From a virus: a DNA stretch of 64,000 nucleotides. A model generated the notes under the pieces. The model searched no databases, was not told the DNA's origin, and saw nothing but the letters and a program-made list of their open reading frames with translations. Positions 7,044 to 59,494 of the stretch are shown here, piece after piece. Within the stretch, counting starts at the first letter, position 1; each line of letters begins with the position of its first letter. Made by a program: the position numbers and the translations under genes. The stretch lies in the IMG/VR virus record IMGVR_UViG_3300050821_002957, positions 15,192 to 79,191 of that record. One strand, 5' to 3'.

Positions 7044-7084
7044 ATACCGTCTCTCTCCAGTTTCTCTTTGAAACTTGCTGTATC

Positions 7085-8724: not shown

Positions 8725-9318
8725 ATGGATATCGTCTATATAGTGGTACGAATGATGACACTCGAAACACTTGAATCGGAATGGCATGAAGGAAACGAAA
8801 AAGCATTCTCTGCCTATGGAAGAACCAGTCACATCAAAGCTCTATGGCGCTGCTCTAAATGCGGTCATGAGTGGCAAGCTACAAAAAGTAATCGAGTAAG
8901 CAAGGGTAGTGGATGTCCTAAGTGTAGAAAACAAAATTTCAAAGGTTCCAGCAATCCAAAATGGACAGGTTACGGTGAAATCAGTGGAAAGCAATGGTCA
9001 GGAATTCGACGTAATTCTATTCAACCATTTGAAATTACTATCGAATATGCCTGGGAACTGTTTCTCATACAAAACAGAAAATGTGTTTTCACTGGTAGGG
9101 AATTAACAGTAAGCACAGCATCACTAGACTGCATAGACCTATCTAAAGGCTATGTCGAAGGTAATGTCCGATGGATCGATAAAAGATTGAATAACATCCT
9201 ACCAGACGAAACCTTTATTGCGTTATGTCAAGAAGTAGCTGCCTACCAGACCAAGAAAGAGTTGGAAGAGCGAGGCATTCCTTCGTTTACAGAATGGAAA
9301 TCGAAAGGTTCTTCATGA
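8725..9318 (+). CDS. free-standing HNH-family homing endonuclease (zinc-ribbon plus HNH)
   Basis: WRCSKCGHEW...CPKCRK zinc ribbon and SLDCIDLSKGYVEGNVRWI HNH-like motif; opposite strand to the flanking head genes, inserted between gp21 and gp22. Confidence 0.6.
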   Translation: MDIVYIVVRMMTLETLESEWHEGNEKAFSAYGRTSHIKALWRCSKCGHEWQATKSNRVSKGSGCPKCRKQNFKGSSNPKWTGYGEISGKQWSGIRRNSIQPFEITIEYAWELFLIQNRKCVFTGRELTVSTASLDCIDLSKGYVEGNVRWIDKRLNNILPDETFIALCQEVAAYQTKKELEERGIPSFTEWKSKGSS

Positions 9319-9979
9319 AAGCATCAAACGACTCCATCATCTCTCTTTCGGATGGAGCTTTCTTTTTGAACTGCTTCTGAATGGTTGCAACCTGAGCTTC
9401 GACTTTGGTGTTCTTCTGGATCTTTGCTTCGGTCAAAATGCCGCCGCTCCAGACCCACTCTTTGCCTTCCATGATTCCTTGGACAAATGCTGAGGGCGCA
9501 CTAGGATCAGCTACAATGTCAGCAGCGGTCGCAAGATAGAAATCGTCCTGGACTTCTTGGATGCCAGAATCGTTTTGTTTCAGGCTCCCCATGCCACGGC
9601 TAGAGACACCTAATTTGACGCCAGCATCCATTAAGTTCTGGACGATTTTGCCATTTGGTGTATTGAGAATTTTTGCCTTGCCGATGAAGTTGTTGCCGTC
9701 ACGATAAAGTTCGGTAATCAAGTGGCTGACCTTATCGAGATTTAAAGTCGGCCCGTCAGGATGTCCCAATTCTCCGAGAGCACGATTCTGAGATACGTAG
9801 GCTTGATGATAACGGGAAACTTCACGCTCTAAAATATCGATTGGATAAACACGACCATTACGATTTTGAAGATTGGCTTGAAGGAAGACACCTTGGATGT
9901 GATATGACTTATTAGGTCCGTTGCCTTCGGTGACTGCTTCGACAATGATGTTTTCGTTCTGCTCACAAATTAGCTTCAT
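9287..9979 (-). CDS. 21: prohead core protease, T4 gp21 family
   Basis: GELGHP and GVSSRGMGSL correspond to T4 gp21 GELNHP and GVSSRGLGSL. Start taken at MKLICEQ, preceded by AGAGGATAAT. Confidence 0.85.
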   Translation of the reverse strand: MKLICEQNENIIVEAVTEGNGPNKSYHIQGVFLQANLQNRNGRVYPIDILEREVSRYHQAYVSQNRALGELGHPDGPTLNLDKVSHLITELYRDGNNFIGKAKILNTPNGKIVQNLMDAGVKLGVSSRGMGSLKQNDSGIQEVQDDFYLATAADIVADPSAPSAFVQGIMEGKEWVWSGGILTEAKIQKNTKVEAQVATIQKQFKKKAPSEREMMESFDAFMKNLSISIL

Positions 9980-9980
9980 A

Positions 9981-10643
9981 TTATCCTCTCTTCTTAGCTG
10001 CTGGTGGGTGTCCAATGAAATTATCTACGACATGCTTTGCGATCATGTGCATGAATGGATTCTTTCCTGCAAACTTCTTAATCGACGTATGGATTGCTTT
10101 GTACCGTGCTCTCTGCTTCTTGTCGATCTTTTTCTTGGCGGTATTTTCTGCGCCACGTTTCGATTTCAATACTGCGGTGCCTGCGGCCAATTCGTTTGAG
10201 ATGGCTTTCAACTCAGGCGTCTTTTTGTCGCTTGCTGCTTTGCTCCACCGTTCCCGAGTGCTCTTCAGCATGGTTTCGATGTGAGATGCAGCCATTCCGT
10301 CAAAGTATTGTTGGAACTGTGCTCTGGAAGGAACTACAGGTTTACCATTGATGTCTTTTTCGACTCTTGGCTTGGGATCGGACTCAGCCAAAATTTGAAG
10401 GTCTCCCCAAAAATTTGCTGATTCTTGTAGACGAATGGATTCGATCATGTCGGCTGCTTTGGCATAGAGCACAGCCTCCAATCCTTCATCTACACGATTT
10501 GCTGCACCATTGGCCTGTCTAATTGCAGAGGCATCGTCGCCGGTTTTAGACAGCACACTATTAGCTACCGCCACCCATACTTTCTTTTGGTGGTCTGATA
10601 GTCCTTTGTGGTGTTTATCTACATCGGCAACGGTCCAAGGCAT
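9981..10643 (-). CDS. hypothetical head-module protein (possible ChaB-like N-terminus), basic C-terminus
   Basis: Located between the portal and the protease gene, where T4 has gp67/gp68; only a weak ChaB-like pattern. Confidence 0.4.
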   Translation of the reverse strand: MPWTVADVDKHHKGLSDHQKKVWVAVANSVLSKTGDDASAIRQANGAANRVDEGLEAVLYAKAADMIESIRLQESANFWGDLQILAESDPKPRVEKDINGKPVVPSRAQFQQYFDGMAASHIETMLKSTRERWSKAASDKKTPELKAISNELAAGTAVLKSKRGAENTAKKKIDKKQRARYKAIHTSIKKFAGKNPFMHMIAKHVVDNFIGHPPAAKKRG

Positions 10644-45406: not shown

Positions 45407-45438
45407 AGCCTTCCCCGAAAAAATTTTTACAAAAAGTG

Positions 45439-45467: not shown

Positions 45468-45473
45468 GGGTTC

Positions 45474-46394: not shown

Positions 46395-46420
46395 TTTTTT
46401 CTCTCTCCTGTTTTGAAAAG

Positions 46421-46449
46421 AAGCGGCCCCTAAAAAAGGCCGCTTTTTT
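46421..46449 (+). terminator. rho-independent terminator after the Ku gene
   Basis: AAGCGGCC-cctaaaaaa-GGCCGCTT 8-bp stem followed by TTTTTT. Confidence 0.7.
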
Positions 46450-46460
46450 AGATGTATCTA

Positions 46461-46489
46461 TTGACATTGGTGACTGGGTTTGGTAAGAT
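46461..46489 (+). promoter_or_regulatory. sigma70-like promoter (cTATTGACA, 17 nt, TAAGAT); ATG 7 nt downstream (leaderless); AGATGTATCTA motif immediately upstream of the -35
   Basis: TTGACA 46461-46466; TAAGAT 46484-46489; ATG at 46496. Confidence 0.6.
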
Positions 46490-46495
46490 TGGATT

Positions 46496-46954: not shown

Positions 46955-46955
46955 T

Positions 46956-47489: not shown

Positions 47490-47491
47490 CT

Positions 47492-47698
47492 ATGACACCA
47501 GCACTTACCGAATACCTTAAGACCGATTATCTGACCATTCTCGATCATCCGGCGCTTTCTCTCGACATGAAAGTCGGCTACCTGATGGCCGTCGTCAACA
47601 TCGATCCGGCTGCACACGGAGCGTCTCATCTACCTTTACGGGAACTTGCAAAGGCTATGAGAACGTTCGTCAGTGCATACACGACAGGAAGCTGGTAA
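47492..47698 (+). CDS. hypothetical small protein
   Basis: Start abuts the previous stop (TAACTATG coupling). Confidence 0.35.
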   Translation: MTPALTEYLKTDYLTILDHPALSLDMKVGYLMAVVNIDPAAHGASHLPLRELAKAMRTFVSAYTTGSW

Positions 47699-47699
47699 A

Positions 47700-47936
47700 A
47701 TGCTACTTCATTCCGAATTACAAGGCACACACGACGCCTACGGCCCAGCCATGACGATTCAGGAAATGCTTGACCTCCTGAGATCAATTCCACGGCAGGC
47801 TCGTCAAAATTACTTGTCGATGGTGGACAAAGATGGTAACATTGTCGATGTCACCGGGCTGCATTTTGCCCAGAGCGACCAAGCAGAGAAGTGGGAATTC
47901 AAAGTTTACGTCGTGACATCAAACAGCAAGGAATGA
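47700..47936 (+). CDS. hypothetical small protein (start at MLLHSELQG)
   Basis: ATG immediately after the previous stop. Confidence 0.35.
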   Translation: MLLHSELQGTHDAYGPAMTIQEMLDLLRSIPRQARQNYLSMVDKDGNIVDVTGLHFAQSDQAEKWEFKVYVVTSNSKE

Positions 47937-47937
47937 C

Positions 47938-48411
47938 ATGAAAAAATTATCCAAAGTCCATCTGAACAATCGAGACATCGTTACGGCAGCATTGCGTGAA
48001 ACCTTACAGACGTTCACTGAGGCGGTCGGTGAATACAATACAGAAGAGCAAGAGGCATTTGAGGTTCTTCAGACTGCCATCACTGCCTACAATGAACGCA
48101 TGGTCGAAGCCTGGGAAAAGGTCGAAACAGCACAGACGGCGCACAACGAATCGATAGACGCCGCCAATGAGTGGATGGGCCAGATTGTTTCAGACATCGA
48201 CGAATACATGTCGGGCAAGTCTGAAAAATGGCAAGACGGTGACGCAGCACAGGCGTACTCTGAATGGAAAGCTGCGTTTGAAGAAGACCTCGAACAAGAA
48301 GACATGGAACAACCGGAACAAATCGAAATCGAACAACCGGATGAACTCTCTCTTAACAGCGACGAAGATCCGGCTGATAAACTGGAACAACTACCCGAAG
48401 AATTGGGATGA
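47938..48411 (+). CDS. very acidic helical protein (candidate DNA mimic / anti-restriction type protein)
   Basis: 157 aa with an Asp/Glu-rich C-terminal half (EEDLEQEDMEQPEQIEIEQPDE); AAGGAATGAC Shine-Dalgarno-like sequence. Confidence 0.4.
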   Translation: MKKLSKVHLNNRDIVTAALRETLQTFTEAVGEYNTEEQEAFEVLQTAITAYNERMVEAWEKVETAQTAHNESIDAANEWMGQIVSDIDEYMSGKSEKWQDGDAAQAYSEWKAAFEEDLEQEDMEQPEQIEIEQPDELSLNSDEDPADKLEQLPEELG

Positions 48412-48584
48412 TCTTTCAGAAGAGAAAAGACGGTCTGATTGAAGCCATCATTGCCTGGAAGAGCTATATTGTCGTTGGATATGGCTCTTCGGAAGAAAAG
48501 GCAGCGCTTAATGCATACCGAGCGATTTGCAACTCCATACTTGATTGACAAAAATCCAATCAATGCGACACTAAATACGCATTG

Positions 48585-49082
48585 GTGGATGATCGCATAC
48601 GTCAAAAACTCGCTAATCTAGTTCGTCTGGCGAAGCGACCCGGTAACCCTCATGAGGGCGAAGCCGCTCGACTTGCTGCTATTCGACTGTCTCTGAAATA
48701 TGGGATAGCGTGTGAATTTACTGCAAGCGGTACAAATCATACCAGTACTCGACCCACAGCGAGTGCGCCGCCGCAAAGTTCGACACAGGAGACCCCTGTT
48801 TCTGACGATGTGATCTTCTACCAATGGATCAAAGCTCTAGCCAAACTTGGTTGGGGAATCCACGACTGCATCGACACCAAAATTGGACGCCAGATAAAAT
48901 TCCGCAAAGCTGGTTACAATTCTGAATTACGAGTCACACAGAGGGCCAAGGGCAACGGTCAAGACTTTGAGGCCGAGCACATTAAACGTCCTGATTCAAT
49001 CAATGGCGAGGATGTTTCCTTTTGCATTTTTATGACGATCCATCTTGGCGAACTCATCCGGCATATTTCATACACTAAATAG
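48585..49082 (+). CDS. DUF2786-like protein (N-terminal RIRKLLALAE-type motif); GTG/TTG start
   Basis: VDDRIRQKLANLVRLAKRPGNPHEGEAARLAAIRL; the plus-strand late-type CACTAAATACGC motif at 48569-48580 lies 8 nt upstream. Confidence 0.4.
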   Translation: MDDRIRQKLANLVRLAKRPGNPHEGEAARLAAIRLSLKYGIACEFTASGTNHTSTRPTASAPPQSSTQETPVSDDVIFYQWIKALAKLGWGIHDCIDTKIGRQIKFRKAGYNSELRVTQRAKGNGQDFEAEHIKRPDSINGEDVSFCIFMTIHLGELIRHISYTK

Positions 49083-49086
49083 CATC

Positions 49087-49347
49087 ATGAAATCCAAGTC
49101 TCTAATCCTTTGGGCAGCGATCCTTTTCGCATTGGGGCGCATATTCATTACGCCTCGCCTGACGAACATTCCCACGGTGACGGGAACTTACGAATCACTG
49201 GCGCATTTGTTTGTTGGCTTTTTGATCCTCGTGCCCTTCTATGATCGTAAAGAAGAGCTTGGACCTTCCAAATTGTACGGTTGGATCGGCTGGGGACTAG
49301 CGAGCGGGGAAGCCGTCTGGTTTGCGGTACAAAAAATCCACGGATAA
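49087..49347 (+). CDS. small membrane protein (two predicted transmembrane helices)
   Basis: MKSKSLILWAAILFALGRIFITP...; ACTAAATAG motif 5 nt upstream of the ATG. Confidence 0.4.
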   Translation: MKSKSLILWAAILFALGRIFITPRLTNIPTVTGTYESLAHLFVGFLILVPFYDRKEELGPSKLYGWIGWGLASGEAVWFAVQKIHG

Positions 49348-49354
49348 ATAGGGC

Positions 49355-49867
49355 ATGAAACTGAGAGCCGTATTACCATTCTTGCTTTTACCCCTCCTTC
49401 TCGTATCATCATCCCTATCTGTTGCTGATTCCGAAGCTGCCTCACCACAAGTCATTATGATGATGTATCATCGTGCGTATCCAAAGTACGTACCAGAACA
49501 CATCACACCAGAATTTCTGAAAGAAAAACATGAATTAGAACAGGTCTACAAAAAGTGGGCTGTAATCTTTCATATGGAAGATTGGAATACAGAAGTGACG
49601 CCGGTCCCGCTTTCCTTCCTTAAAGAATTTTGTCCGTCTGAATGTTTTGCCGGAAGCAACTGGAACATCTATGACGAAAGCGGTGTAATGTTCATTCTCC
49701 AACGATCAGAATACACTAACGAAATGAAAAAGAGTTTGCGTCAGCGACATGTAAGTATCTGGTCTGATCAACGAAACAGCGTTCTTCATGAAATTCTTCA
49801 CAATGTAATTGAACATGGATACGAAGAAGCCGTAGTCAGCACACTTGCAAATTTGTTGAATCCCTGA
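49355..49867 (+). CDS. secreted protein with a Sec signal peptide
   Basis: MKLRAVLPFLLLPLLLVSSSLSVADS; GGATAAATAGGGC motif 4 nt upstream of the ATG. Confidence 0.45.
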   Translation: MKLRAVLPFLLLPLLLVSSSLSVADSEAASPQVIMMMYHRAYPKYVPEHITPEFLKEKHELEQVYKKWAVIFHMEDWNTEVTPVPLSFLKEFCPSECFAGSNWNIYDESGVMFILQRSEYTNEMKKSLRQRHVSIWSDQRNSVLHEILHNVIEHGYEEAVVSTLANLLNP

Positions 49868-49879
49868 TAAGCTCGCTAA

Positions 49880-50704
49880 ATGGGCGTAGACGCACGTATT
49901 CTCCTTAAAATCACCGATTCTGCCGCATGGCTCGATGCAGCACAACTTAGGAACATCTCAGCTAGGCTTACTGAGGCCATCGGCTACGACCACTTCTTCA
50001 TCGATACAGATGAAGATCGTCATGCAATTTCATTTGTAATCGACGAGAACAAAAAGTATCCCGCCGACTATGAACAGGAACCCGGCAAACCTTTCGATCC
50101 GACTGGTCCTGCGGTCTACGGACAAGATTCCAATGAAGAACCATATTTGATCGCCAAACCGAACGAACAATTTCTTGAAGTGCATCTATTCTCTCGATAC
50201 TACGGTGAAGACTATGCTCGTGGGGATTGGCCGATGATCTACTTCACGCTGATGTGGTGCTTTCACAATATTCCTCATTGTGAAGTCTGGTACGGTGGTG
50301 ATTCCAGCGGTTGTCTCATGGAACACATGACAGTGGAACGTATGGTCGAAGTGACAAAATTCTTTTTGACAACAGGCTACAAGACATATCGCACTTACGC
50401 CCGAGACCATGAATACATCTGTGAATTTTGTAAGGTCATAGCTATTAGGTCTGGTGGCGGTGGTGGGACAGATTTTTATTCATGCGATTCCTGCGGCCAA
50501 CATTGGAACATCGAACATGTAGGTGCATTCAAACGTTTGGTGACCCGGTTTGGAGATGAGCCGACCGACGACAAACACGACAACAAAATCCCGTCGTTTA
50601 CGATGTCCCAACAAATGCGAGAAGGAAAACGCACACTCTATCCATTCGATGGCATTTTCCGCAAAAGATACGCTCCAAAGGTTGAAAAACAGACCGTTCA
50701 ATAG
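49880..50704 (+). CDS. hypothetical protein with a C-terminal Cys cluster
   Basis: CEFCKV...SCDSCGQHW. Confidence 0.45.
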   Translation: MGVDARILLKITDSAAWLDAAQLRNISARLTEAIGYDHFFIDTDEDRHAISFVIDENKKYPADYEQEPGKPFDPTGPAVYGQDSNEEPYLIAKPNEQFLEVHLFSRYYGEDYARGDWPMIYFTLMWCFHNIPHCEVWYGGDSSGCLMEHMTVERMVEVTKFFLTTGYKTYRTYARDHEYICEFCKVIAIRSGGGGGTDFYSCDSCGQHWNIEHVGAFKRLVTRFGDEPTDDKHDNKIPSFTMSQQMREGKRTLYPFDGIFRKRYAPKVEKQTVQ

Positions 50705-50724
50705 CTCCTATCTGATAGTGCCAC

Positions 50725-50753
50725 TTGACTTTAGCAGCAAAGTGTGGTAAGAT
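50725..50753 (+). promoter_or_regulatory. sigma70-like promoter (TTGACT, 17 nt, TAAGAT) with an AGATGTATCTA motif overlapping the -10; the downstream gene has a conventional AAGGAG leader
   Basis: TTGACT 50725-50730; TAAGAT 50748-50753; ATG at 50786. Confidence 0.55.
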
Positions 50754-50785
50754 GTATCTAGTGGCGCATCTCAGAAAGGAGCAAT

Positions 50786-51286
50786 ATGCTGCTAAAAAAT
50801 ACATCCCAGTACAGTGATCAGATAGTACGGTTCATCGTCAAGCACGCCGCCAGCACTATCGATATAAGCAACGTTGCAATCAACGTCAAGAATTCTACTC
50901 ATCGGTACGCTGGTCGAGCATTTCCGTACATTCCTTCTGAATCACCTTGGCGGGGAACTCCGAAGGCTCGATACCTGATCGTCTGTCGTGTCGGTGGGCC
51001 AAAATTATTCCCCTATCAATGCAAAGGATACCCCGGACGCAAAATTGAAAATGGTCGCTGGCCGACGCCTTTGCTCGCCGATTGGATGGAATGCATGGTC
51101 ATGTTGGTTGCTCATGAACTTTTTCACATTCAGCAATTCCGTGTGAAAGCTCGATGCACCGAACTCGAAACTGAAGCCTTCGGAATGCGCCGCCTGGAAG
51201 CGTGGAGAGAGCTTGTCGCTGCTGGGAAGGTGCCGAGCCTGCCTCTTCAAACGAACGGCTGTAGCGTCTCAGAAGCGCAAGAATGA
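50786..51286 (+). CDS. hypothetical protein with an HExxH motif (possible zinc metallopeptidase)
   Basis: MLVAHELFHIQQF, followed by Glu residues about 20 aa downstream. Confidence 0.4.
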   Translation: MLLKNTSQYSDQIVRFIVKHAASTIDISNVAINVKNSTHRYAGRAFPYIPSESPWRGTPKARYLIVCRVGGPKLFPYQCKGYPGRKIENGRWPTPLLADWMECMVMLVAHELFHIQQFRVKARCTELETEAFGMRRLEAWRELVAAGKVPSLPLQTNGCSVSEAQE

Positions 51287-51420
51287 GGTATTGGCTGCGA
51301 AGCTCGAACATTGCCAAGCCATGCTCCAAAAGAACACGACCAAAATGAAACGTGCCGAGACCATCGTCAAAAAGTGGCGCACCAAAGTCCGATACTACGA
51401 AAAAAAGATTGATACATCTA

Positions 51421-51449
51421 TTGACATCTCGGTCTGAAGTTGCTATCAT
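51421..51449 (+). promoter_or_regulatory. sigma70-like promoter (TGATACATCTATTGACA, 17 nt, TATCAT); ATG 8 nt downstream (leaderless)
   Basis: TTGACA 51421-51426; TATCAT 51444-51449; ATG at 51457. Confidence 0.55.
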
Positions 51450-51456
51450 AGGTTTA

Positions 51457-51576
51457 ATGAAACGCAACGGACACCAAATCAAAAAGATCGGTTACACTCG
51501 CAAGGGCTGGAGCAAAAACTATGCTATCCGTGCCGACCGCCGCAACGGGAAAGCCGCTGCCAAGGACACCAACTAA
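51457..51576 (+). CDS. small basic protein (39 aa)
   Basis: MKRNGHQIKKIGYTRKGWSKNYAIRADRRNGKAAAKDTN; the only ATG at leaderless distance from the promoter. Confidence 0.3.
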   Translation: MKRNGHQIKKIGYTRKGWSKNYAIRADRRNGKAAAKDTN

Positions 51577-51577
51577 C

Positions 51578-51766
51578 ATGAACAACTTCACCAAACCCTT
51601 CATTGTTTGGTCGATTGGTGATTTTGAAGGATGGATTCCGCAAGAATTCGAGTCCCAGGAAGCCATCGTCGAAGCGATCAAGAAGGGCGAAATCCGTGGT
51701 GAATACGCCGTAACTCGATTAATGCCGGTCAAGGTCACCGTCGATTTGCAAGACTGTGTACGATAA
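51578..51766 (+). CDS. hypothetical small protein (start MNNFTKP)
   Basis: TAACATG coupling. Confidence 0.35.
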   Translation: MNNFTKPFIVWSIGDFEGWIPQEFESQEAIVEAIKKGEIRGEYAVTRLMPVKVTVDLQDCVR

Positions 51767-51776
51767 AGGAAAAACC

Positions 51777-51941
51777 ATGCAACCAACCATTCGTGAATCT
51801 CTTAAAAACGCTTTGGAAGCCCTGAAATCCTCAGGCTTCCCTCCGGGCGGCGCAGTGTACGACGATCTGAACCAAGTTCTTCTCGATTTGGGCAACGAAG
51901 ATATGTATGGGACGCTGCTTGAAGATCAGTTGACGGCATAA
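51777..51941 (+). CDS. hypothetical small protein (start MQPTIRE)
   Basis: AAAGGAAAAACC Shine-Dalgarno-like sequence. Confidence 0.35.
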   Translation: MQPTIRESLKNALEALKSSGFPPGGAVYDDLNQVLLDLGNEDMYGTLLEDQLTA

Positions 51942-51957
51942 AAGATACATCTACCCA

Positions 51958-51986
51958 TTGACACCAAACAGAGAAATTGGTACACT
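51958..51986 (+). promoter_or_regulatory. sigma70-like promoter (AGATACATCTAcccaTTGACA, 17 nt, TACACT); ATG 7 nt downstream (leaderless)
   Basis: TTGACA 51958-51963; TACACT 51981-51986; ATG at 51993. Confidence 0.55.
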
Positions 51987-51992
51987 TTACTC

Positions 51993-52238
51993 ATGGGACT
52001 TGGAAACAACAGAGATTATGTCAAGAGCGAACGGAAGATCAAATGCCGTCTCGCTGTCCTCGCACAAAGAACAAAGGAATTGACGGACACTGGCATGGGC
52101 TATGGCACTGCGTTCCGGCAAGCATCCGCAGGACTCAATGCTGGTGAACTGGGAGACCGACTCAAAGCCTGGGTCGATCCGGTCCTAAAGCACAAACGTG
52201 AAATCCGTGCGGCACGAAAGGCGGCAGAAAATGACTAA
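51993..52238 (+). CDS. hypothetical small protein
   Basis: Leaderless geometry. Confidence 0.4.
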   Translation: MGLGNNRDYVKSERKIKCRLAVLAQRTKELTDTGMGYGTAFRQASAGLNAGELGDRLKAWVDPVLKHKREIRAARKAAEND

Positions 52239-52401
52239 GCTCCAACACGTTTCAATTTTGAAGAATGGTCTAAAACAATCCGTGATGACCGCCATCGAAG
52301 AAGCGGTTTTCAGCGGTCTCACACCAGAACAAGTCAGTGACGTTTTGACGGAACTGGGCTACGCTCCCAAACTGAATACGAACGAACTCCCGGCATACTA
52401 A
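52231..52401 (+). CDS. hypothetical small protein (start MTKLQHV)
   Basis: ATGA overlap. Confidence 0.35.
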   Translation: MTKLQHVSILKNGLKQSVMTAIEEAVFSGLTPEQVSDVLTELGYAPKLNTNELPAY

Positions 52402-52402
52402 C

Positions 52403-52594
52403 ATGAAACAATTTCTCCATCTTTCTCTTTCCGGCGACGAAGTTGCTGCGCTCATCATGATCACGCATCAAGCCAGCCAGACAACCTTCATGGATGCTAA
52501 GACCCGAGCCGCCGTCCAACAACTAGGCCAAAAAATCTACAACAAGGCTGGAGTGGACGTAGACAGCACCGACTTACCACTGGGAGATTTTTAA
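52403..52594 (+). CDS. hypothetical small protein
   Basis: TAACATG coupling. Confidence 0.35.
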   Translation: MKQFLHLSLSGDEVAALIMITHQASQTTFMDAKTRAAVQQLGQKIYNKAGVDVDSTDLPLGDF

Positions 52595-52920
52595 TGAAAA
52601 AGTGTCTGACCTGTGATCGCAAGCTGACGCCGCCGACAAGTGTGCCTCGATGGAACAGAGAAACACTGGCGGAATCAAGCCGCAAATTTTACGACGAACA
52701 AGTTGCCACACGCCAAACTGAAATCGCCGACGAAAAACTTGGTCTGTACGGCGAGAGTCAATTCTGCAACAAAGAATGTGCCGCTTTCTTCGGTCGCACT
52801 GCCGTCGCAATTTTCGCTCACATGGACTTCATGCCGCCGACCTTTGCCGAGCGCATCACCATGATTCAGAAACTTGCGGAGCGCATGTTCACCTGGGTTC
52901 GAGAACGGAAGACCAAATGA
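52594..52920 (+). CDS. zinc-ribbon-containing small protein
   Basis: CLTCDRK...CNKEC. Confidence 0.4.
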   Translation: MKKCLTCDRKLTPPTSVPRWNRETLAESSRKFYDEQVATRQTEIADEKLGLYGESQFCNKECAAFFGRTAVAIFAHMDFMPPTFAERITMIQKLAERMFTWVRERKTK

Positions 52921-53183
52921 CCCTCGCCGAAATAATGCCCTACGAATTCATTCGTGGTGAATACAACGATACACCTGCGTACTTGCTGAAAGACTGCCCG
53001 GTGAAGTCTGTTCACTGCATGGTCAAGGATGGTGAGCACTATAAGCGCTGGCCGGGACCGCACAAGAACGTTGTCACCTGGGTAGTGCTCGACAACGGCA
53101 AACTGGTAGGATGGAACGAAAACGTCGCTCGTGGCTGGAGCTTCCCGGTCCTTCCAGCACGACCGTGGTTGATCGAGGAATAA
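52917..53183 (+). CDS. hypothetical protein (start MTLAEIMPYEF)
   Basis: ATGA overlap. Confidence 0.4.
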   Translation: MTLAEIMPYEFIRGEYNDTPAYLLKDCPVKSVHCMVKDGEHYKRWPGPHKNVVTWVVLDNGKLVGWNENVARGWSFPVLPARPWLIEE

Positions 53184-53184
53184 A

Positions 53185-53412
53185 ATGGAACCAATCATCA
53201 TCACTGGCACTGTAGGAGACATCAGCACCGAAGATAGTGGCGCTGCGAAGATTGCCGATCTGGACGACGAAGAATCGACCGGCAGTCCTGAATTTTTCGT
53301 GCGCCTGCAAAGTTATAACGACAATTTTGATAGCACCGACAAGCAAATGCACCCGACGATGGATGCGCTGGCCGGAAAGAAAGTTCGCATCACCGTGGAG
53401 GTAATCGAATGA
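53185..53412 (+). CDS. hypothetical small acidic protein
   Basis: GAGGAATAAA Shine-Dalgarno-like sequence. Confidence 0.35.
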   Translation: MEPIIITGTVGDISTEDSGAAKIADLDDEESTGSPEFFVRLQSYNDNFDSTDKQMHPTMDALAGKKVRITVEVIE

Positions 53413-53803: not shown

Positions 53804-53833
53804 AACGCTCCCAGGACATTTCGACATAGAAAA

Positions 53834-53859
53834 GGCCCATCGGTGTCATCCGGTGGGCC
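53834..53859. terminator. 10-bp hairpin between convergent gene blocks; a U-tract on the minus strand (terminator for 53897-56347), weaker on the plus strand
   Basis: GGCCCATCGG-tgtcat-CCGGTGGGCC; the minus-strand RNA continues TTTTCTATG. Confidence 0.55.
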
Positions 53860-53896: not shown

Positions 53897-56347
53897 CTAC
53901 TTGGTGAAGTCTGAGAGCTTCATGTTGTCGCCCTGATCCTTCACAAATGGCTTCTTTGCTGCCCCACCATGCTTTGGACAGTTGCCGCCACCCGTTCTGT
54001 AAAGACATTTCTTGTCGCCGCAATACAAATGTGGATTCTTTTCTTTGTTGAGTCGAACTTTCATTGCTGTCGAGTCCCGACCGGCTTCAGCCAAGACAGC
54101 TTTGAGCAGATTCATGTTCACTTCTTCGTAGTATGTTCCGCCCTGTGCGCCTCTGACTCGCTTCAATCCAAGGCTCGTCAGCGCATTATGTCTTGCTTTT
54201 GCATTTCCGGCACTCTTTTTACGAGATGCAATTTTGTTTAAGTGTTGATCAAGAGACTTAGCCGAGCTTCCTTCGTTCGGCGTCAAGCTCTTATTCGGAC
54301 CACGATGTTTCCAGCTTCCTTCTGGTGAAAGATGAACTGACGATGTGTCCTTATGACGATATGTCGAATAGTGTTCTGGATCGCTACTGACGTGACTGTA
54401 ACCATGCTTCTTCAAAACCTCATGATGTTGAGCATTGTACATCGCATGGTGTTCCATTTCCGATTCGTCAAACCGTTCTTTGTACTTCGCTGGTTTATCC
54501 TTTTTCGACCGGATGACTTTCTTTGCAGGTGGCATTCCGACCGCAGCTTTTGATCTACGCTTCATGTCTTCCGGCGTATCTTTGATCGTCATCGTATTGC
54601 TTTTGAACTTGGCGAACTTATTCTTGCCTTCAGACACGTCACCTTTCCAGAAACCAGGATGATGTGTACCAACTTTCTTTTCGTACTTCTCTTGATCATC
54701 TGCATCGGTTGGATGAATTGCTGTTCCGAAAGATCCGTGCTTGACGTGGAGCTTCGATCCATCATGATGACGATATTCTGGTGTCTTATTTTCGTTCGAT
54801 CCCATGTACATGTAATGCTTATCGTCCGAATCCTTTCTGATTAATGGATGCAAAATCGGCTTATCGACACTATGATCATAGTATCTGGTCTCATCGACTT
54901 TTTTGATCGACCCCCAAGCAGCAGAGTCTTTCATCTTGGCTTTGTCGTTGTCGGCGAGGAGCTTCTTATCCGGGCACGGCATATCAACAGCGTGCATTCT
55001 TCCACAGGCTTCACACTTCTCTAGCTTGTTTGCTCTTTGGATGTCCTTCGAGTCAGCTTCTTTTAATTTTTCCCAACCAGTCTTCGCTTTTTTTCGTGCT
55101 TCCTGTCTACGTTCGTTAGCTTTTTCAACATCATCGTCGGACCACATTTCTGGTGTGCTCTTACGATAAGAATCATACGGCGGATAACCAGTTTTGAGAT
55201 GCCGTGTGCGCTCTTGCGTCTTGACATCCGGGTAACCTTCAGTGACAAGCTCATGATGCCATTCATGCCCACCATTTCCCTTTTGTGCAGCGGCTTGACG
55301 ATTCAAATGATCGACATAATCTTGTGGCTTCGGATACTTGTGCTGTACGTTTCCACCAAATTTTTTTGGGAGTTCATGGAAACGATCTTGGTGAGCAATG
55401 CTGTGCAAGTGATCGTTGGTAATGTCAGCAGTACGGCTCTTTCCAGTCGGAACGTGAGTAACTTTCATTTTACCAAGAACAGCCTTGTCATTACTTGTTG
55501 ACTCCTTCAATTCTGCCTTATGCATTTTTGCTTGCTTGTCGTGATGATTCCAACGATTTACGTTAGGTTGGAAATTGGAGCCTTTAGGTGGTTGCGGAGC
55601 AAATTCACTACCTCTCGCTTTCAAATGAGCATTCATTGCCGAACGATGATCTTCTGGCTTGTTAGTTTTGTACGCCAGTCGAGTTGCTTTAGCTGCTAAA
55701 AGAGAATGTCCAGGATTTGCATCTGATCCAATCTCAATAGAGCCATTGCTAAATCCGCCACTTTCATTAACATTGTTCTCTGGGCCGAGCGCACGAGCAG
55801 TGTGAATCGACTGAGGATGATCAGTAGTAGGATGACGGTCGCCGCAGACTGCACAGTGAGTGCTCTGATCTGCTTCTTCAACCTTTTTGACTCGACCACC
55901 ACCATGACAAGTATGACAATCCGTAGCGTCATTCTTGCCTCTGAGTGAACCAACACCATGACACGTCGGACAAGGAGTGTATCCAGGTGCAGCCGTCCAT
56001 GAATTGGTGTGCTTGCTGGCATCTTTCACCCATGCGGTAGCTTCTGACAAAACATTTTTTAACAGAACTTCGGTCTCTTCTCTAACAGTGTGAAAGCGAG
56101 TGTCATGACCGGCTTTTTTCATAGCTGTCTTTGCTGCCTTTTCGGTCGCAGCATGAACGGTATCTACGTGTCTGTTGCTGGTCATGTCAATAACTCTCCA
56201 CGGCTTCTTTGGCGTATTCTCTTTTTCATGCACATGAGTCACATCGCCATAGTCACCAGTAGCGTAGGCTGTATCGTTTTTGAAGCGATGAGCCATACTG
56301 GTCATTTGGGTGTCCGCTTGATTCTTGCGCTTTGAAGTATAGTTCAT
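53897..56347 (-). CDS. giant His/Lys/Asp-rich low-complexity late protein (816 aa) with DnaJ-type CxxCxGxG zinc-finger motifs and further Cys pairs
   Basis: CPTCHGVGS...CHTCHGGGR...CAVCGDRH; CEACGRMH...PCP; C-terminal CGDKKC...CPKHGG. TAAATG junction with the upstream gene. Confidence 0.6.
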   Translation of the reverse strand: MNYTSKRKNQADTQMTSMAHRFKNDTAYATGDYGDVTHVHEKENTPKKPWRVIDMTSNRHVDTVHAATEKAAKTAMKKAGHDTRFHTVREETEVLLKNVLSEATAWVKDASKHTNSWTAAPGYTPCPTCHGVGSLRGKNDATDCHTCHGGGRVKKVEEADQSTHCAVCGDRHPTTDHPQSIHTARALGPENNVNESGGFSNGSIEIGSDANPGHSLLAAKATRLAYKTNKPEDHRSAMNAHLKARGSEFAPQPPKGSNFQPNVNRWNHHDKQAKMHKAELKESTSNDKAVLGKMKVTHVPTGKSRTADITNDHLHSIAHQDRFHELPKKFGGNVQHKYPKPQDYVDHLNRQAAAQKGNGGHEWHHELVTEGYPDVKTQERTRHLKTGYPPYDSYRKSTPEMWSDDDVEKANERRQEARKKAKTGWEKLKEADSKDIQRANKLEKCEACGRMHAVDMPCPDKKLLADNDKAKMKDSAAWGSIKKVDETRYYDHSVDKPILHPLIRKDSDDKHYMYMGSNENKTPEYRHHDGSKLHVKHGSFGTAIHPTDADDQEKYEKKVGTHHPGFWKGDVSEGKNKFAKFKSNTMTIKDTPEDMKRRSKAAVGMPPAKKVIRSKKDKPAKYKERFDESEMEHHAMYNAQHHEVLKKHGYSHVSSDPEHYSTYRHKDTSSVHLSPEGSWKHRGPNKSLTPNEGSSAKSLDQHLNKIASRKKSAGNAKARHNALTSLGLKRVRGAQGGTYYEEVNMNLLKAVLAEAGRDSTAMKVRLNKEKNPHLYCGDKKCLYRTGGGNCPKHGGAAKKPFVKDQGDNMKLSDFTK

Positions 56348-58099
56348 TTACTTCTTCTTGCCCACCATGCCCACGTTCCACTTAACGTGTTGTTTGCATT
56401 TTTCATTCGGATGTTCAGCAGCAACCTTTCCACAATTGTTGCAAATTGGATCTTTGAGCTTCTTCTTTTGATCGGCTGTCAAACCTTCCGCCATCAACTT
56501 GGCGTACTCTTGTGAAATAGTTACCGACTCAGTTTTGACTCCACCCGGTTTGTCGCCCGGAAAGCCAGTTTTCTTTTTTGCTGCGGTATGCTTTACGTAA
56601 TTCTTCTCGTCAACCAAACCAGGAGTGCCATGTTTGCCGCCCATATTGAGAACCCACCCGCCATGACTAGAACGCATGACAGCTTTGCCTCTTTGTGTTT
56701 GACCTTGAGGAGTTTTGATGTGAACTGTGTCACCGTGACCAATTTCATTAAAGGCTTCGACGATTTCTTCTTCGGCCATATCATTGTGCGAGTCTGGTCC
56801 ACTGTAATGCTGACACATTGGGCTGTGCTTCTCATTATCATGGCAAGAGCTTACGCAATCTTTGGTTGGTTTGAATTTTCCAACAGCAAGTCCTTGAGAA
56901 CGAGACGACCGCATAAGTGCTGCTTTGTCGTCAGAAACGTCTTCTACGATTGCACTAACTTTTTTTTTAGGATCTACAGATTCCATAAGACCGGCCACTT
57001 CAGCACGGTGTTTGATGTAACCAGCAGCCGCAGCAATGATCGGATCGACTTCTTCATTCTGAGAAGCAGTATCGTTCATTCCCTTCATGCGATTATTGGC
57101 TTTTTGAATTGCCTTTGGTCCCTTGTCTTCCGGGTCGGCCTGCATGTTTGAAAATGCATTCGCCGGATTGTACATAATTGCTGATGCATGTGAGATCACG
57201 TCCGCATCGCCACCAGGAGTCTGTGGATAAGCAGTAGGAATGTGAGCCTGTTGTGTCACACCGAAATCATCAGCTTCATTCTTTGATGTTGGGCACATGC
57301 ACATCGAGCCATTGCAAGATTTCGGCATATTACCACTGGAGCCACCACATGTCGGGCAATAGCTGCATGGACAATTTTTTGTGGTACAAGTATTTTTTGC
57401 TTTCTCATCTTCAGTCATACCGACCATTGCATCATTGGCATCTTGAAAATTTGCAGCTTCACCCTCGTAGGTTGCGCCTTCTGGGTTATTTGCATAATCA
57501 GCTTGAGGATTGTTGAATCCAATCTCACCTTCGCCCATAACACGCTTTATTTGTGCTTGTGCTCTACGACGCTTCGGGACAACTTTGTTTGCAACTTTGT
57601 TTACGACGCCCTTCATCTTATTCAAAATTTCGCCTTCATAAGTTGCGCCCTTTGGATTTTTTGCATAATCGGCTTCCGGGTCTTTGAATTCAATGTCGGT
57701 CTCACCCATCATGTCAGGAGAGGAAGACTCTTCATCTTCACCAAGAGAATGATGATTCTTGGCTGCGCTCTTCATAGCCTTTGCGCCGTACTTTTCTACA
57801 CCGACCTTGTGAGCGATGGCACCTGCGTAAGCAGCACTCTTTCCACCAGCTTCGAGCTTACCTACGAGCTTCTTGAAACCAATATGCTTCTCAGCTACGA
57901 AGACTTCTACTAACTGTTTTGCCGTTTCAAACGCAATGCCCTGTGCAATACGAATGCCCATACGTTGCTGATTGTTATTGTACACCGATTCATAGATGTC
58001 GTTGACTTCCTTACGAACATCTTCAGGCAAAGAAGCGTAAGCCGGATATTTTGCAATGTCATTGGTCTCGACATCGTTCATGTTTCTAAAAAAGCTCAT
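56348..58099 (-). CDS. giant charged low-complexity late protein (583 aa) with Cys clusters and a C-terminal zinc-knuckle-like CNNCG...H...C..H
   Basis: CPCSYCPTCGGSSGNMPKSCNGSMCMCP; duplicated segment ADYA(K/N)NP(K/E)GATYEGE; late CTCTAAATACGAC motif about 30 nt upstream. Confidence 0.6.
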   Translation of the reverse strand: MSFFRNMNDVETNDIAKYPAYASLPEDVRKEVNDIYESVYNNNQQRMGIRIAQGIAFETAKQLVEVFVAEKHIGFKKLVGKLEAGGKSAAYAGAIAHKVGVEKYGAKAMKSAAKNHHSLGEDEESSSPDMMGETDIEFKDPEADYAKNPKGATYEGEILNKMKGVVNKVANKVVPKRRRAQAQIKRVMGEGEIGFNNPQADYANNPEGATYEGEAANFQDANDAMVGMTEDEKAKNTCTTKNCPCSYCPTCGGSSGNMPKSCNGSMCMCPTSKNEADDFGVTQQAHIPTAYPQTPGGDADVISHASAIMYNPANAFSNMQADPEDKGPKAIQKANNRMKGMNDTASQNEEVDPIIAAAAGYIKHRAEVAGLMESVDPKKKVSAIVEDVSDDKAALMRSSRSQGLAVGKFKPTKDCVSSCHDNEKHSPMCQHYSGPDSHNDMAEEEIVEAFNEIGHGDTVHIKTPQGQTQRGKAVMRSSHGGWVLNMGGKHGTPGLVDEKNYVKHTAAKKKTGFPGDKPGGVKTESVTISQEYAKLMAEGLTADQKKKLKDPICNNCGKVAAEHPNEKCKQHVKWNVGMVGKKK

Positions 58100-58132
58100 T
58101 GTATAGGTCTCCCACGTAGGTGCTAGTCGTAT

Positions 58133-58723
58133 TTAGAGTTTTGACAACCTACAATGTCTGCTATTAAACATTTTTTCTTTTGTAGTTTCTGACAAAATTT
58201 TCCCTTTATGAGCACGACCGATAGCTGCTTTGGCTTCATCTGAGTGCGAATAGGTCATTCCAACTGCGTACTGATTTCCTCTCATCTGTTCCCGTTTTCG
58301 TGCCCGACCTTCTTCAGTGAGCTTTGCTTGCTTTGCCCATTCAGCGGCCTGGAGTCTGGCCTCAGGATGTTTTTGAAAGTAAACCACCCTGCACTCTCGA
58401 AGTTTTTGTTTAGTCGCTTCAGAATGTTTGTGACCGTAACCTTCACCACCCGGCTTCATGTTATAGCCTGTTTCTATTGTGTTGAGTTTAACGATCCAAT
58501 CTCGTTCTTTCTGATTGAGTGATTCTTTATCAGTAGCGACATCTATTGTTTCGATCAGAAAGACTTCAGAACCATATTTTCGGATCGCACGATGAATGGT
58601 AGTTTGAGAGCCTTTTCGTACTTCTGATTTATGTTGCTGAAATCGCTTCATTGCAGTAACCATCGTTTTGCCAACGTACTGCTTTCCATTGATTGTGTTT
58701 GTAAGAGTGTAAATAATCATCAC
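58133..58723 (-). CDS. GIY-YIG homing endonuclease (Seg/I-TevI-like) with NUMOD3-type repeats
   Basis: IYTLTNTINGKQYVGKT...R...H...N GIY-YIG core; HSEATKQKLRE and HSDEAKAAIGRAHKGK NUMOD3-like modules. Confidence 0.7.
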   Translation of the reverse strand: MMIIYTLTNTINGKQYVGKTMVTAMKRFQQHKSEVRKGSQTTIHRAIRKYGSEVFLIETIDVATDKESLNQKERDWIVKLNTIETGYNMKPGGEGYGHKHSEATKQKLRECRVVYFQKHPEARLQAAEWAKQAKLTEEGRARKREQMRGNQYAVGMTYSHSDEAKAAIGRAHKGKILSETTKEKMFNSRHCRLSKL

Positions 58724-58750: not shown

Positions 58751-59494
58751 CTACCCCATGATAAAATCTATAGGCAATTGGAATTCGTCGTGAACTTGCT
58801 GTTCTAACTTTTCGATATTGTCGAGTGCTTTTTGGTAAATGTCGGCACCGTTTAAAGTTACACCACCGAGCAGGGCAACTCCTTGATATTTAATCAGGTT
58901 CTCACCCCACTGACGCCGTAGCAATTCAGTCGTATAGGCCATCAGCCAACGATCTCGATAGACATCTGGGTAAACATCCGGGTCCAAAATTCTATAACAT
59001 TCAATAATGTAGTAATCGCCGACAGAGACCGACGACCAATCCAACAGAATGCGAAGTTGCATCTGGTGACGAACAAACAAGATACCAGGGTCCGCATTGA
59101 ACTCAAATTCCAAGAGTGCAAGATGCTTCTGCATGATGTCGTAGTGAATGATCGATGTACTCGTAAAAGTATACAAGTCATTCAAGCGCATCTGATATTG
59201 AACGTCGAACAACCCGATGTTGCTGGCATTTGAATTTGCAGTCGGCAAAACACGAGTAACAGAGATGATCGGGGCCGGAATCGGAATGTACTCATTTGTA
59301 ATATCCTGAGCCGTCATTTGATGGGCAAGATACACTCTTTCTACGCCGTCGAAGTGATAGTCTTGAAAGTAGAGAAAGGCATCATCTACACGGTCTTCAA
59401 TTTGCCCTGGATCGAGGTTAATTTCGATTACAGGAGCACCAAGTCTACGTAAGCAATAGTCGATCAGTTCTTGTCGGTTTGTTGGTAACGCCAT
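58751..59494 (-). CDS. 13: neck protein, T4 gp13 family
   Basis: CLRRLGAPVIEINLDPGQIEDRVDDAFLYFQDYHFDG corresponds to T4 gp13 [37 protein letters not shown]; C-terminal LLGGVTLNGADIYQKALDNIEKLEQQ corresponds to [26 protein letters not shown]. Confidence 0.8.
   Translation of the reverse strand: MALPTNRQELIDYCLRRLGAPVIEINLDPGQIEDRVDDAFLYFQDYHFDGVERVYLAHQMTAQDITNEYIPIPAPIISVTRVLPTANSNASNIGLFDVQYQMRLNDLYTFTSTSIIHYDIMQKHLALLEFEFNADPGILFVRHQMQLRILLDWSSVSVGDYYIIECYRILDPDVYPDVYRDRWLMAYTTELLRRQWGENLIKYQGVALLGGVTLNGADIYQKALDNIEKLEQQVHDEFQLPIDFIMG

Follow-up and report, generated by a model that had tools for sequence, protein, structure and literature searches.

The question raised by this locus is what is encoded by two long, adjacent reading frames that lie among the virion genes of an uncultured phage. 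The stretch of DNA analysed (64,000 nucleotides, here termed the window) comes from a metagenomic T4-like jumbo phage, with source contigs of 321–405 kb, and is its structural module, encoding capsid protein, scaffold, a gp21-type protease, portal, sheath and terminase. Judged from their sequences, the two products, A816 and B583, stand a somewhat better than even chance of being head-targeted polyproteins, each cut into 10–12 small, partly zinc-binding proteins. To our knowledge, packaged polyproteins that are chopped up within the capsid have not been described for phages.

The two genes and the signals that flank them are:

58136..58130, minus strand: CTAAATA, late-promoter-like motif, 31 nt 5′ of the B583 ATG
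56348..58099, minus strand: B583, 583 aa, a mosaic of leader M1 and modules M2–M9
53897..56347, minus strand: A816, 816 aa, a basic mosaic of leader A1 and about 11 modules
53828..53859, minus strand: hairpin followed by a U-run, terminator-like end of the two-gene unit

Both reading frames are real and their coordinates are verified, but the word ‘giant’, used of them in the original prediction, is too strong, as the same window holds a 934-aa reading frame. The A816 start at 56347 is backed by conservation of residues 1–14 among relatives. The B583 stop directly touches this start (AAG TAA ATG), which bears out the proposed TAAATG coupling. The late motif is also where it was said to be, and CTAAATA is enriched in the window, with 21 occurrences against 4.7 expected; 19 of the 21 are on the minus strand, where the copies are mostly immediately 5′ of structural genes. 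The motif is kept in four related contigs (L001–L004), where it lies 31–59 nt 5′ of the first family gene's called start, and none is present before the second family gene there. At the other end, an 86-nt stretch containing the hairpin folds with −21.3 kcal/mol (z = −2.0). B583 and A816 are probably one functional unit, and some relatives hold modules of both in one reading frame.

The unit has a conserved upstream neighbour:

58751..59494, minus strand: gp13-like neck protein (phrog_211, E=2e-38)

PF26809 is called in the gp13 orthologues, and synteny places family genes directly behind gp13 in eight genomes. A variable accessory-gene island adjoins the family genes, and relatives carry Ku, ferritin and Tpt1-like genes there. 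B583 and A816 sit between neck genes 13 and 14, outside the head-core cluster, and are separated from gp14 by an 8.5-kb opposite-strand island. Their place between gp13 and gp14 and their late-promoter control would suit accessory neck, collar or whisker proteins. This is nevertheless very improbable, given the opposite-strand island before gp14, a highly hydrophilic composition and a module content that differs freely even between close relatives, unlike that of fixed structural parts.

The mosaics consist of zinc ribbons, an SH3-like barrel, a small alpha/beta domain and others, at least 10 modules per protein, and module order and content are reshuffled across relatives. B583 has 37 relatives, most of which have just single modules in common with it. 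Its parts are:

57890..58099, minus strand: M1, conserved N-terminal leader of B-type proteins, aa 1–70
57737..57889, minus strand: M2 module (KHIGF...KYG...LGE), aa 71–121
57410..57700, minus strand: tandem M3 repeats (..GATYEGE) and M4 module (FQDANDAMVGMTE), aa 134–230
57293..57388, minus strand: cluster of 8 Cys with two candidate zinc sites, aa 238–269
56981..57277, minus strand: M5 and M6 modules, aa 275–373, M6 ending in G-L-M-E|S
56564..56755, minus strand: M8, SH3-like beta-barrel module (AVMRSSHGGWVLNMGGKHGTPGL), aa 449–512

M1 is N-terminal in 20 of 20 instances and ends in L-V-E or V-A-E (M-C-E in relatives); a PDB relative was sought for it and none was found. On its sequence it is a candidate head-targeting propeptide. 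The place of M2 within proteins differs among family members, and relatives have a CxHCxGxGCxxC knuckle in place of the 8-Cys cluster. The parts of A816 that can be set out in the same way are:

56225..56347, minus strand: A1, conserved N-terminal leader of A-type proteins, aa 1–41, ending in V-H-E
55874..56041, minus strand: A3, zinc-knuckle module with two CxxCxGxG motifs, aa 103–158
54086..54628, minus strand: A10–A12, largest piece between motif sites, aa 574–754
53900..54085, minus strand: A13, C-terminal C3H zinc module, aa 755–816

A1 is N-terminal in most relatives and is followed by the motif hhxxh(L/I)xE|A (NVLSE|A at aa 98–102), which resembles the end of the T4 capsid targeting sequence. 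The A10–A12 piece contains an ‘HGY’ alpha/beta domain and a LGLKRVxGxxGGTYYE hairpin. The mosaic, polyprotein-like architecture is the main feature of the locus, and was overlooked in the original prediction.

That prediction had described both proteins as His/Lys/Asp-rich, extreme in composition and apparently disordered. The composition fits A816 (K 12.3%, H 7.0%, D 7.0%, pI 9.4, GRAVY −1.16), in which ILVFM amount to 15.6%, against 26–34% in the capsid, sheath and terminase proteins; it does not fit B583, which is neutral (pI 7.0) with 3.1% His. Disorder may be right for aa 574–630 of A816, a low-confidence region in the AlphaFold model, but M8 (pLDDT 88) and A816 aa ~630–745 (pLDDT 76–93) are modelled with confidence. 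As modelled, the proteins are beads on a string and not featureless disordered chains.

Several of the beads have lives of their own. A13, A2, A5, A10 and A11 occur elsewhere as whole small proteins, and A3 is found within short proteins (P0064, P0095). The N-termini of the stand-alone module proteins align with the residue directly after proposed cut sites. A13 is common to about 60 stand-alone small proteins of 43–130 aa. One of these was checked and is complete, inside an array of small reading frames; the A13-type stand-alone proteins have no Pfam match, and a search of phage records with one of them found nothing.

The CxxCxGxG motifs had been read as DnaJ-type. Two are present in A816 (CPTCHGVG at aa 126 and CHTCHGGG at aa 144), and as in the DnaJ cysteine-rich domain (PF00684) such a pair could form one zinc centre. 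DnaJ, however, has four repeats, two zinc centres and flanking J and C-terminal domains. The Pfam DnaJ_CXXCXGXG model matches A3 with E=0.005 and 17.5 bits, under the cut-off of 32.7, and the NCBIfam DnaJ models reach 14–18 bits against cut-offs above 500. Membership of the DnaJ/Hsp40 family is refuted by the two repeats, the sub-threshold score and the missing J and C-terminal domains. That A816 and B583 might be zinc-finger chaperones or co-chaperones for virion assembly is barely credible: the two motifs and sub-threshold matches speak for it, but A3 makes up 56 of about 1400 residues, and the motif is not conserved in orthologues, the closest of which (P0002 and L001_822) lack the A3 knuckle and carry another zinc ribbon instead. 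This two-repeat knuckle is just one of about eight candidate zinc sites.

Searches of Pfam, PHROGs and NCBIfam revealed no enzymatic domain in A816 or B583, in agreement with the original prediction; besides the DnaJ model, Pfam gave only a single spurious match of 13 bits at E<=0.1. A weak PHROG ‘virion structural protein’ match of B583 did not recur in 10 homologues. A tblastn search of 50,697 deposited phage records, T4-like phages included, revealed no relatives of the family, and the notion of a possibly novel class holds.

What joins the modules is more telling. T4 gp21 cleaves after L/I-x-E (PMC9026906). In the phage's own capsid protein, QQLME|AAPT stands where the T4 gp23 cut aligns, and the scaffold protein has PLME|S; the L-M-E that ends M6 recurs at this capsid-protein propeptide junction and near the scaffold C-terminus. 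With a motif only three residues long, Glu-rich linkers, and break-point sets so dense that 32–51% of positions lie within 2 aa of one, all 11 [LIVM]xE sites of A816 are 0–5 aa from homology break points, and 10 of the 11 are within 2 aa, against a background of 32% (P=1e-4). In B583 the figure within 2 aa is 12 of 14 (P=0.008); two off-joint sites are inside leader M1, and V-D-E at aa 498 is within the SH3-like fold. Among 44 tripeptide classes [LIVM]xE is the sole one associated with break points (0/43 controls), with no such association for [LIVM]xD, [AGS]xE or [DE]xE. Predicted cuts in A816 are after E41, E90, E102, E158, E195, E282, E370, E430, E486, E573 and E754, and the residue after a proposed cut is mostly A, S, G or T. 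At three A816 joints the motif is missing, the residues there being S-I-E (near aa 205), E-M-E (aa 631) and Y-Y-E (aa 741).

The motif also travels with individual modules. Of 17 M4 instances, 16 close with M-T-E and one with M-S-E. [LIVMF]-x-E stands immediately before M2 in 17/17 instances, in about nine different upstream contexts, and the motif precedes M8 in 19/19 family members, compared with 2/15 proteins from elsewhere (Fisher 1e-7); as family members share descent, neither the 17/17 nor the 19/19 is a tally of independent events. Because the motif is absent before most M8-type domains outside the family, it is not part of the M8 fold.

These data bear on whether A816 and B583 enter the head at all. 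They could be late cytoplasmic multi-domain proteins that are never packaged, acting as hubs or adaptors or as nucleic-acid or metal binders, with [LIVM]-x-E a favoured helix-end or linker sequence. The motif is short and the linkers acidic, packaging is deduced from sequence, the genes adjoin the variable accessory island, and an SH3/KOW/Tudor-like barrel and zinc ribbons are typical binding modules. We consider this unlikely, as the gp21 motif alone among the tripeptide classes follows the joints, accompanies M8 in the lineage but not the same domain in proteins from outside it, and goes together with leaders that are strictly N-terminal. The distant relative P0130, a mosaic protein, moreover shares a gene run with a gp21-type protease gene.

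The link to a protease extends to the window itself, where the following features are found:

7131-8696: gp22-like scaffold, already present in the window
9287..10015, minus strand: gp21-type prohead protease, the proposed processing enzyme (phrog_207, E=4e-81)
9981..10643, minus strand: p220, directly upstream of the protease gene (gp67/gp68 slot), with a module in common with P0015

P0015 is a family member whose gene follows gp13 and a GIY-YIG gene, and p220 is 64% identical to it over 69 aa. The P0130 gene is 2.8 kb downstream of a Peptidase_S77 (gp21-type protease) gene in the same run, and cutting P0130 at its own [LIVM]xE sites would leave at most one recognisable mini-domain per longer piece. 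The module shared by p220 and P0015 beside the protease, and the location of P0130, fit the polyprotein model.

The same evidence for targeting and cleavage would serve an auxiliary prohead core or scaffold, whose fragments, as with T4 gp22, are driven out ahead of DNA packaging or in the course of it, with no host role for the modules. T4 gp22, gp67 and gp68 are also cut into short fragments, and a jumbo capsid may need extra core mass. Such a role is quite improbable, however: the pieces are conserved, fold independently and exist as free-standing genes in other phages, which is unexpected for disposable scaffold; the window already has its gp22-like scaffold; and A816 is basic, as are DNA-associated internal proteins.

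Chains of unrelated mini-proteins with gp21-type joints are thus probably packaged polyproteins that are cut inside the capsid. B583 and A816 would be expressed late and destined for the prohead interior. A leader, either M1 with its roughly 70 aa or A1 with roughly 41 (then ..V-L-x-E|A), would bring them to the scaffolding core like the T4 capsid targeting sequence, and the gp21-type protease would cleave every [LIVM]-x-E joint behind its Glu. A816 would yield about 10–12 small proteins of 37–181 aa and B583 a similar number, among them zinc ribbons or knuckles, the SH3-like barrel and the small alpha/beta domain. The freed proteins would remain beside the packed DNA and most likely pass into the host along with it. 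Targeting, cleavage, head retention, ejection and host roles of the modules are steps that we infer. Packaging in the manner of T4 internal proteins, as suggested in the original prediction, has real but indirect support, in the N-terminal leaders, the conserved late-promoter control, the fixed place in the virion cluster and, most of all, the gp21 motif at the joints. The model is directly testable, since eleven exact cut sites are given for A816 alone.

A broader proposal is more speculative, and we rate it below an even chance. The T4-like jumbo lineage and distant T4-like phages (such as the source of P0130) may share a cassette system for pre-made effectors. Small proteins for which other phages have individual small genes would be strung behind a head-targeting leader with prohead-protease joints, expressed late and cut in the capsid. 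At least 20 of them would then reach the host as a mixture together with the DNA and act ahead of any phage transcription, and modules would pass rapidly from phage to phage. Such a system would amount to an operon at the protein level and to the first true effector polyprotein of a bacteriophage.

If the polyprotein model is right, the T4 principle of targeting peptide, cargo and gp21 cut is extended to the polyprotein, so that one or two genes suffice to load a capsid with many unrelated mini-proteins. The model would account for the diversification of the injected arsenal in jumbo T4-like phages. It would also assign function by location to widespread tiny ‘dark matter’ families (the SH3-like AVMRSSHGGWVLNMGG domain, the LYCxxxCLWRTGGGxCPxHGG zinc protein and the HGY domain), and provide a multi-cargo design, taken from nature, for protein delivery vectors built on T4.

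Among known systems, polyvalent proteins combine 2–15 disparate domains, are encoded beside virion genes and are predicted to be co-injected; solo domains exist, and proteolytic release has been suggested (PMC5512222, Iyer et al. 2017). A816 and B583 likewise have several disparate domains in one polypeptide and a virion-gene neighbourhood. Polyvalent proteins are defined largely by enzymatic effectors, however, whereas here the domains are tiny and of the binding type, with release proposed to be by prohead protease at regular joints; Pfam, NCBIfam and PHROGs show none of the polyvalent effector or anchor domains (MuF, zincin-like peptidase, ADP-ribosyltransferases, nucleases) in either protein.

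Giant phages have long propeptides and multiple cuts (PMC5694885). The inner-body and ejection proteins of phiKZ, 201phi2-1 and SPN3US resemble the present case in belonging to jumbo phages, in long propeptides with several post-Glu cuts, and in the many head-internal proteins of unknown function. They differ in an (S/A/G)-x-E motif, a diverged protease and paralogous families of large proteins in place of mini-domain chains. Neither tblastn nor PHROGs gave homology to phiKZ or SPN3US head protein families, and [AGS]xE is unlinked to the joints here. The T4 core proteins gp22, gp67 and gp68 are processed to short fragments (PMC5694885), with multiple L/I-x-E cuts that yield small peptides, and p220, in the gp67/gp68 slot, has a family module; the T4 proteins are, however, helical or acidic scaffolds without independent folded domains, and no homology to them was detected.

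Another close parallel is with the T-even internal proteins, whose cargos are diverse, whose targeting sequence is the sole common part and whose lysines touch DNA (PMC3012670). No homology of A816 or B583 to IPI, IPII, IPIII or Alt was found by tblastn of the 50,697 phage records, nor was there a PHROG internal-protein match. The likeness is one of pattern, here read from the genes alone: late or virion-associated cargo behind a conserved N-terminal peptide ending in hydrophobic-x-Glu (M1 with M-C-E or L-V-E; A1, then hhxxh(L/I)xE|A), basic, Lys-rich and hypervariable between related phages, in a phage that has its own gp21-family prohead protease. The differences are leaders of 41–70 aa compared with 10–20 aa, far larger proteins, and about ten different tandem cargos per gene with cut sites between them, where T4 internal proteins have one.

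The virion module of a T4-like myovirus makes up the window and includes the genes for two adjacent mosaic proteins of 583 and 816 aa (B583 and A816).

Features of the window
5730-7109, capsid protein
7131-8696, minus strand, scaffold, gp22-like
9287-10015, gp21-type prohead protease
9981-10643, minus strand, p220, gene in the gp67/gp68 slot, immediately 5′ of the protease gene
10911-11408, minus strand, p165, gene in the gp67/gp68 slot beside the protease
13254-13721, minus strand, EndoVII/HNH-like gene, homing-endonuclease type, inserted in the structural module
14089-15939, minus strand, portal
16580-17128, tail tube
17178-19562, tail sheath
19615-20127, minus strand, EndoVII/HNH-like gene, homing-endonuclease type, inserted in the structural module
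20124-21803, large terminase
43060-44112, gp15
44112-44846, gp14
53859-53828, minus strand, hairpin, then U-run, 3′ of A816
53897-56347, minus strand, A816 ORF
56348-58099, minus strand, B583 ORF
58136-58130, minus strand, CTAAATA, 31 nt upstream of the B583 ATG
58133-58723, minus strand, GIY-YIG/NUMOD3 gene, homing-endonuclease type, inserted in the structural module
58751-59494, gp13

T4-like cyanophages are the best known relatives of the portal (52% identity). Contigs with exactly these two proteins span 321-405 kb, and the source is therefore an uncultured jumbo phage. The stop codon of B583 directly abuts the start of A816 (AAG TAA ATG). The CTAAATA sequence, which we take to be the late-promoter motif of T4-like cyanophages, is found 21 times in the window (4.7 expected); 19 copies are on the minus strand, mainly directly 5′ of structural genes, and it is retained 5′ of the first family gene in four loci of relatives (L001-L004). 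Because of the upstream CTAAATA, the abutting ORFs, and the hairpin and U-run that follow A816, the pair looks like a single late transcription unit. Both ORFs, their TAA/ATG coupling and the late motif before B583 are as the original prediction had them.

In the window, as well as in L001-L004, L010, L011 and L012, the family genes are always 3′ of gp13, and a GIY-YIG homing endonuclease gene often intervenes. This gene is present again between gp13 and the mosaic gene in L003, L004, L011 and L012, and it might favour module exchange in its neighbour. An opposite-strand island of small ORFs (44864-53412, plus strand) separates the neck genes gp13 and gp14; the matching island in relatives has Ku, ferritin-like, Tpt1-like (PTS_2-RNA) and HNH genes.

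Both proteins had been described as extremely rich in His, Lys and Asp and as having DnaJ-type CxxCxGxG motifs. The composition holds for A816 (K 12.3%, H 7.0%, D 7.0%, ILVFM just 15.6%, pI 9.4), but B583 is less extreme (H 3.1%, pI 7.0). Two CxxCxGxG motifs are present in A816, at aa 126 and 144, and these might suggest a DnaJ-like chaperone. However, Pfam DnaJ_CXXCXGXG scores 17.5 bits on A816 against a cut-off of 32.7, NCBIfam DnaJ matches are far under threshold, and Pfam detects no J domain in B583 or A816. In addition, the closest orthologues have another zinc ribbon in place of the A816 knuckle; the two proteins together have about eight candidate zinc sites, and this knuckle is one of them. 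The motifs thus stand without the DnaJ label, and a chaperone of this type is scarcely credible.

Searches of Pfam, PHROGs and NCBIfam with B583 and A816 gave only sub-threshold zinc-finger matches. A PHROG ‘virion structural protein’ match of B583 (E=0.002) is absent in 10 homologues and was rejected as chance. By megablast and tblastn, 50,697 deposited phage records contain no match to the two proteins, to the SH3-like module of B583 (M8) or to one stand-alone protein consisting of A13, the C-terminal zinc module of A816. Profile searches of the PDB with M8, A10-A12 and the B583 leader M1 gave no credible match. The ‘Moraphage’ jumbo-phage paper (PMC12619734) appears to describe a different lineage.

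In B583, modules M2-M9 follow leader M1 (aa 1-70); in A816, some 11 modules follow leader A1 (aa 1-41). Relatives share both proteins piecewise, module content and order vary, and in some relatives B-type and A-type modules are fused in one ORF (e.g. P0014, 949 aa). An exhaustive HMMER search with A816 yielded 96 cluster representatives, the majority of which match a single module. A13 (aa 757-800, window 53948-54079) is found in about 60 proteins or clusters of 43-130 aa (P0066-P0133), and the one stand-alone A13 protein checked is complete and belongs to a run of 17 small ORFs that all point the same way (L007). The A13 copies share the motif xxAKKVRxxKExxPxLYCxxxCLWRTGGGxCPxHGG, and the family is uncharacterised. 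A2 is a whole small protein elsewhere (P0075, complete, on a contig of <600 bp). Small proteins also represent A5 (P0050, P0052, P0063), A10 (P0073) and A11 (P0074), and the CxxCxGxG module A3 is found in the short proteins P0064, seen within 588 bases only, and P0095. None of 10 stand-alone small proteins scanned exceeds a Pfam family threshold.

Structure prediction is confident for an alpha/beta domain at A816 aa ~630-745 (pLDDT 76-93), whose matches are generic only; aa 574-630 are predicted with low confidence. Given the autonomous modules and this domain, the proteins are beads on a string and not the disordered chains they had appeared to be. Whole-protein alignments from fragments (alignment A1) were discarded and single regions modelled instead (alignments A2 and A3), because MAFFT misplaced the fragments, 107 of 131 in a local test. 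M8 (B583 aa 449-512, window 56564-56755) has the near-invariant core AVMRSSHGGWVLNMGGxHGTPGL and recurs in 15 or more proteins that are unrelated in other respects (P0024-P0040), e.g. next to VWA and AAA_5 genes in L005. It has no match in Pfam (searched via B583), PDB sequences or deposited phage records, and is a candidate new domain family.

The joints between modules carry a recurrent motif. T4 gp21 cleaves after the Glu of L/I-x-E, and an Asp at P1 prevents cleavage in T4 (PMC9026906). The phage capsid protein has QQLME/AAPT (a slash marks the proposed cut) where it aligns to the T4 gp23 cut position, and the scaffold contains PLME/S. A816 has 11 [LIVM]xE sites, with Glu at 41, 90, 102, 158, 195, 282, 370, 430, 486, 573 and 754, all 0-5 residues from homology break points determined by the searches. 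Ten are within two residues of a break point, as are 32% of positions (binomial P=1e-4), and [LIVM]xE is alone in this association among 44 tripeptide classes tested alike; [LIVM]xD, [AGS]xE, [KRH]xE and [DE]xE are at background. In B583, 12 of 14 sites are within two residues of a break point against a background of 51% (P=0.008). This test replaced one on mean distance, in which two of the remaining sites, deep within leader M1, kept the result from significance (P=0.30). It should be pointed out that all these joint tests compare a short motif with dense sets of break points.

Among relatives, which are related by descent, [LIVMF]xE precedes M2 in 17 of 17 instances and in about nine distinct upstream contexts. 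The motif likewise precedes M8 in 19/19 family members and in 2/15 non-family proteins with the same domain (Fisher 1e-7), and is therefore a property of the joint in the family lineage, not of the M8 fold. Residues following the proposed cuts are chiefly A, S, G and T, the N-termini of stand-alone homologues align directly after the cuts, and orthologue L001_822 retains sites 486, 573 and 754. The predicted A816 pieces are 41, 49, 12, 56, 37, 87, 88, 60, 56, 87, 181 and 62 aa. Three A816 joints lack the motif, however, and one [LIVM]xE site falls within the SH3-like fold. Both count against a polyprotein; that B583 and A816 are instead multi-domain proteins that are never packaged seems unlikely.

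A second joint-like motif, G-(P/A/G/K)-(T/S)-Y-(E/WE/YE), is found at A816 aa 736-742, at B583 aa 151-155 and 208-212, and at 46 more places in relatives. It always precedes variable sequence, and ...GGTYWE is the exact C-terminus of four proteins. The motif might serve for docking or as a second cut site.

There are also links to the head genes. p220 and the family member P0015 have a common 69-aa module (64% identity) that ends L-Q-E in both. A distant 653-aa mosaic, P0130 (L013 4739-6700), combines zinc ribbons and an SH3-like unit with two copies of A13. V-S-E or V-N-E precedes each A13 copy, and most joints of the protein carry [LIVM]xE. Cutting it at [LIVM]xE leaves at most one recognisable mini-domain per longer piece. 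A Peptidase_S77 gene lies 2.8 kb upstream on the same strand and in the same gene run, and the polyprotein-like architecture may therefore extend beyond the gp13-adjacent family to other T4-like phages.

Several neighbouring products are unusual. p220 and p165 are basic (pI 9.7-9.9) and low in hydrophobic residues, and the p165 N-terminus, MKTLLE/D, resembles the T4 capsid targeting sequence. Between the portal and protease genes, a 599-aa ORF (11418-13217, minus strand) has 25.9% D+E, long poly-Asp tracts, two CQxCGQ motifs and several [LIVM]xE sites close to the N-terminus. No family matches this ORF, whose product may be a giant acidic protein of the prohead core. The scaffold is extended at its N-terminus by a long acidic stretch, in which a ~45-aa direct repeat, EEEEGETSLKDxDDDFGTPDETLPDVDSxLxxPDKL, is present twice (aa ~150-250). 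The portal has a C-terminal extension of ~100 aa (aa ~495-600), G/M/P-rich and then strongly acidic, outside the PHROG portal profile. Directly downstream of the capsid gene, a 356-aa protein (4103-5173, minus strand) has a SprT-like metalloprotease domain (PF10263, E=3.5e-11).

On balance, we lean towards B583 and A816 being polyproteins of the head, targeted to the prohead and processed there by the protease. Their leaders would direct them to the prohead, where cleavage by the gp21-type protease would yield numerous small proteins, some of them zinc-binding. That the two are targeted and cut, and their products retained and ejected, is what we infer from the sequences. Should the pieces not be retained, the two would be disposable core proteins, which share the joints with our reading and which we consider rather improbable. 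The long leaders and the locus between neck genes count against a polyprotein; the latter might suggest accessory neck proteins, a role that we consider very improbable.

No account of a polyprotein like B583/A816 was found in the literature. The nearest published idea is that of polyvalent proteins, in which many domains are found in a single injected polypeptide (PMC5512222), but their hallmark enzymatic domains are absent from B583 and A816. Giant phages have long propeptides and multiple cuts (PMC5694885), and in both respects are similar to the model proposed here. The T4 internal proteins are diverse, with the capsid targeting sequence as the sole common part, and their lysines touch DNA (PMC3012670); these provide a parallel in leader-targeted diverse cargo. 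Internal head proteins that the prohead protease cleaves are a known kind; what would be new in B583 and A816 is that unrelated mini-proteins are strung into a polyprotein, with regular protease joints between them.
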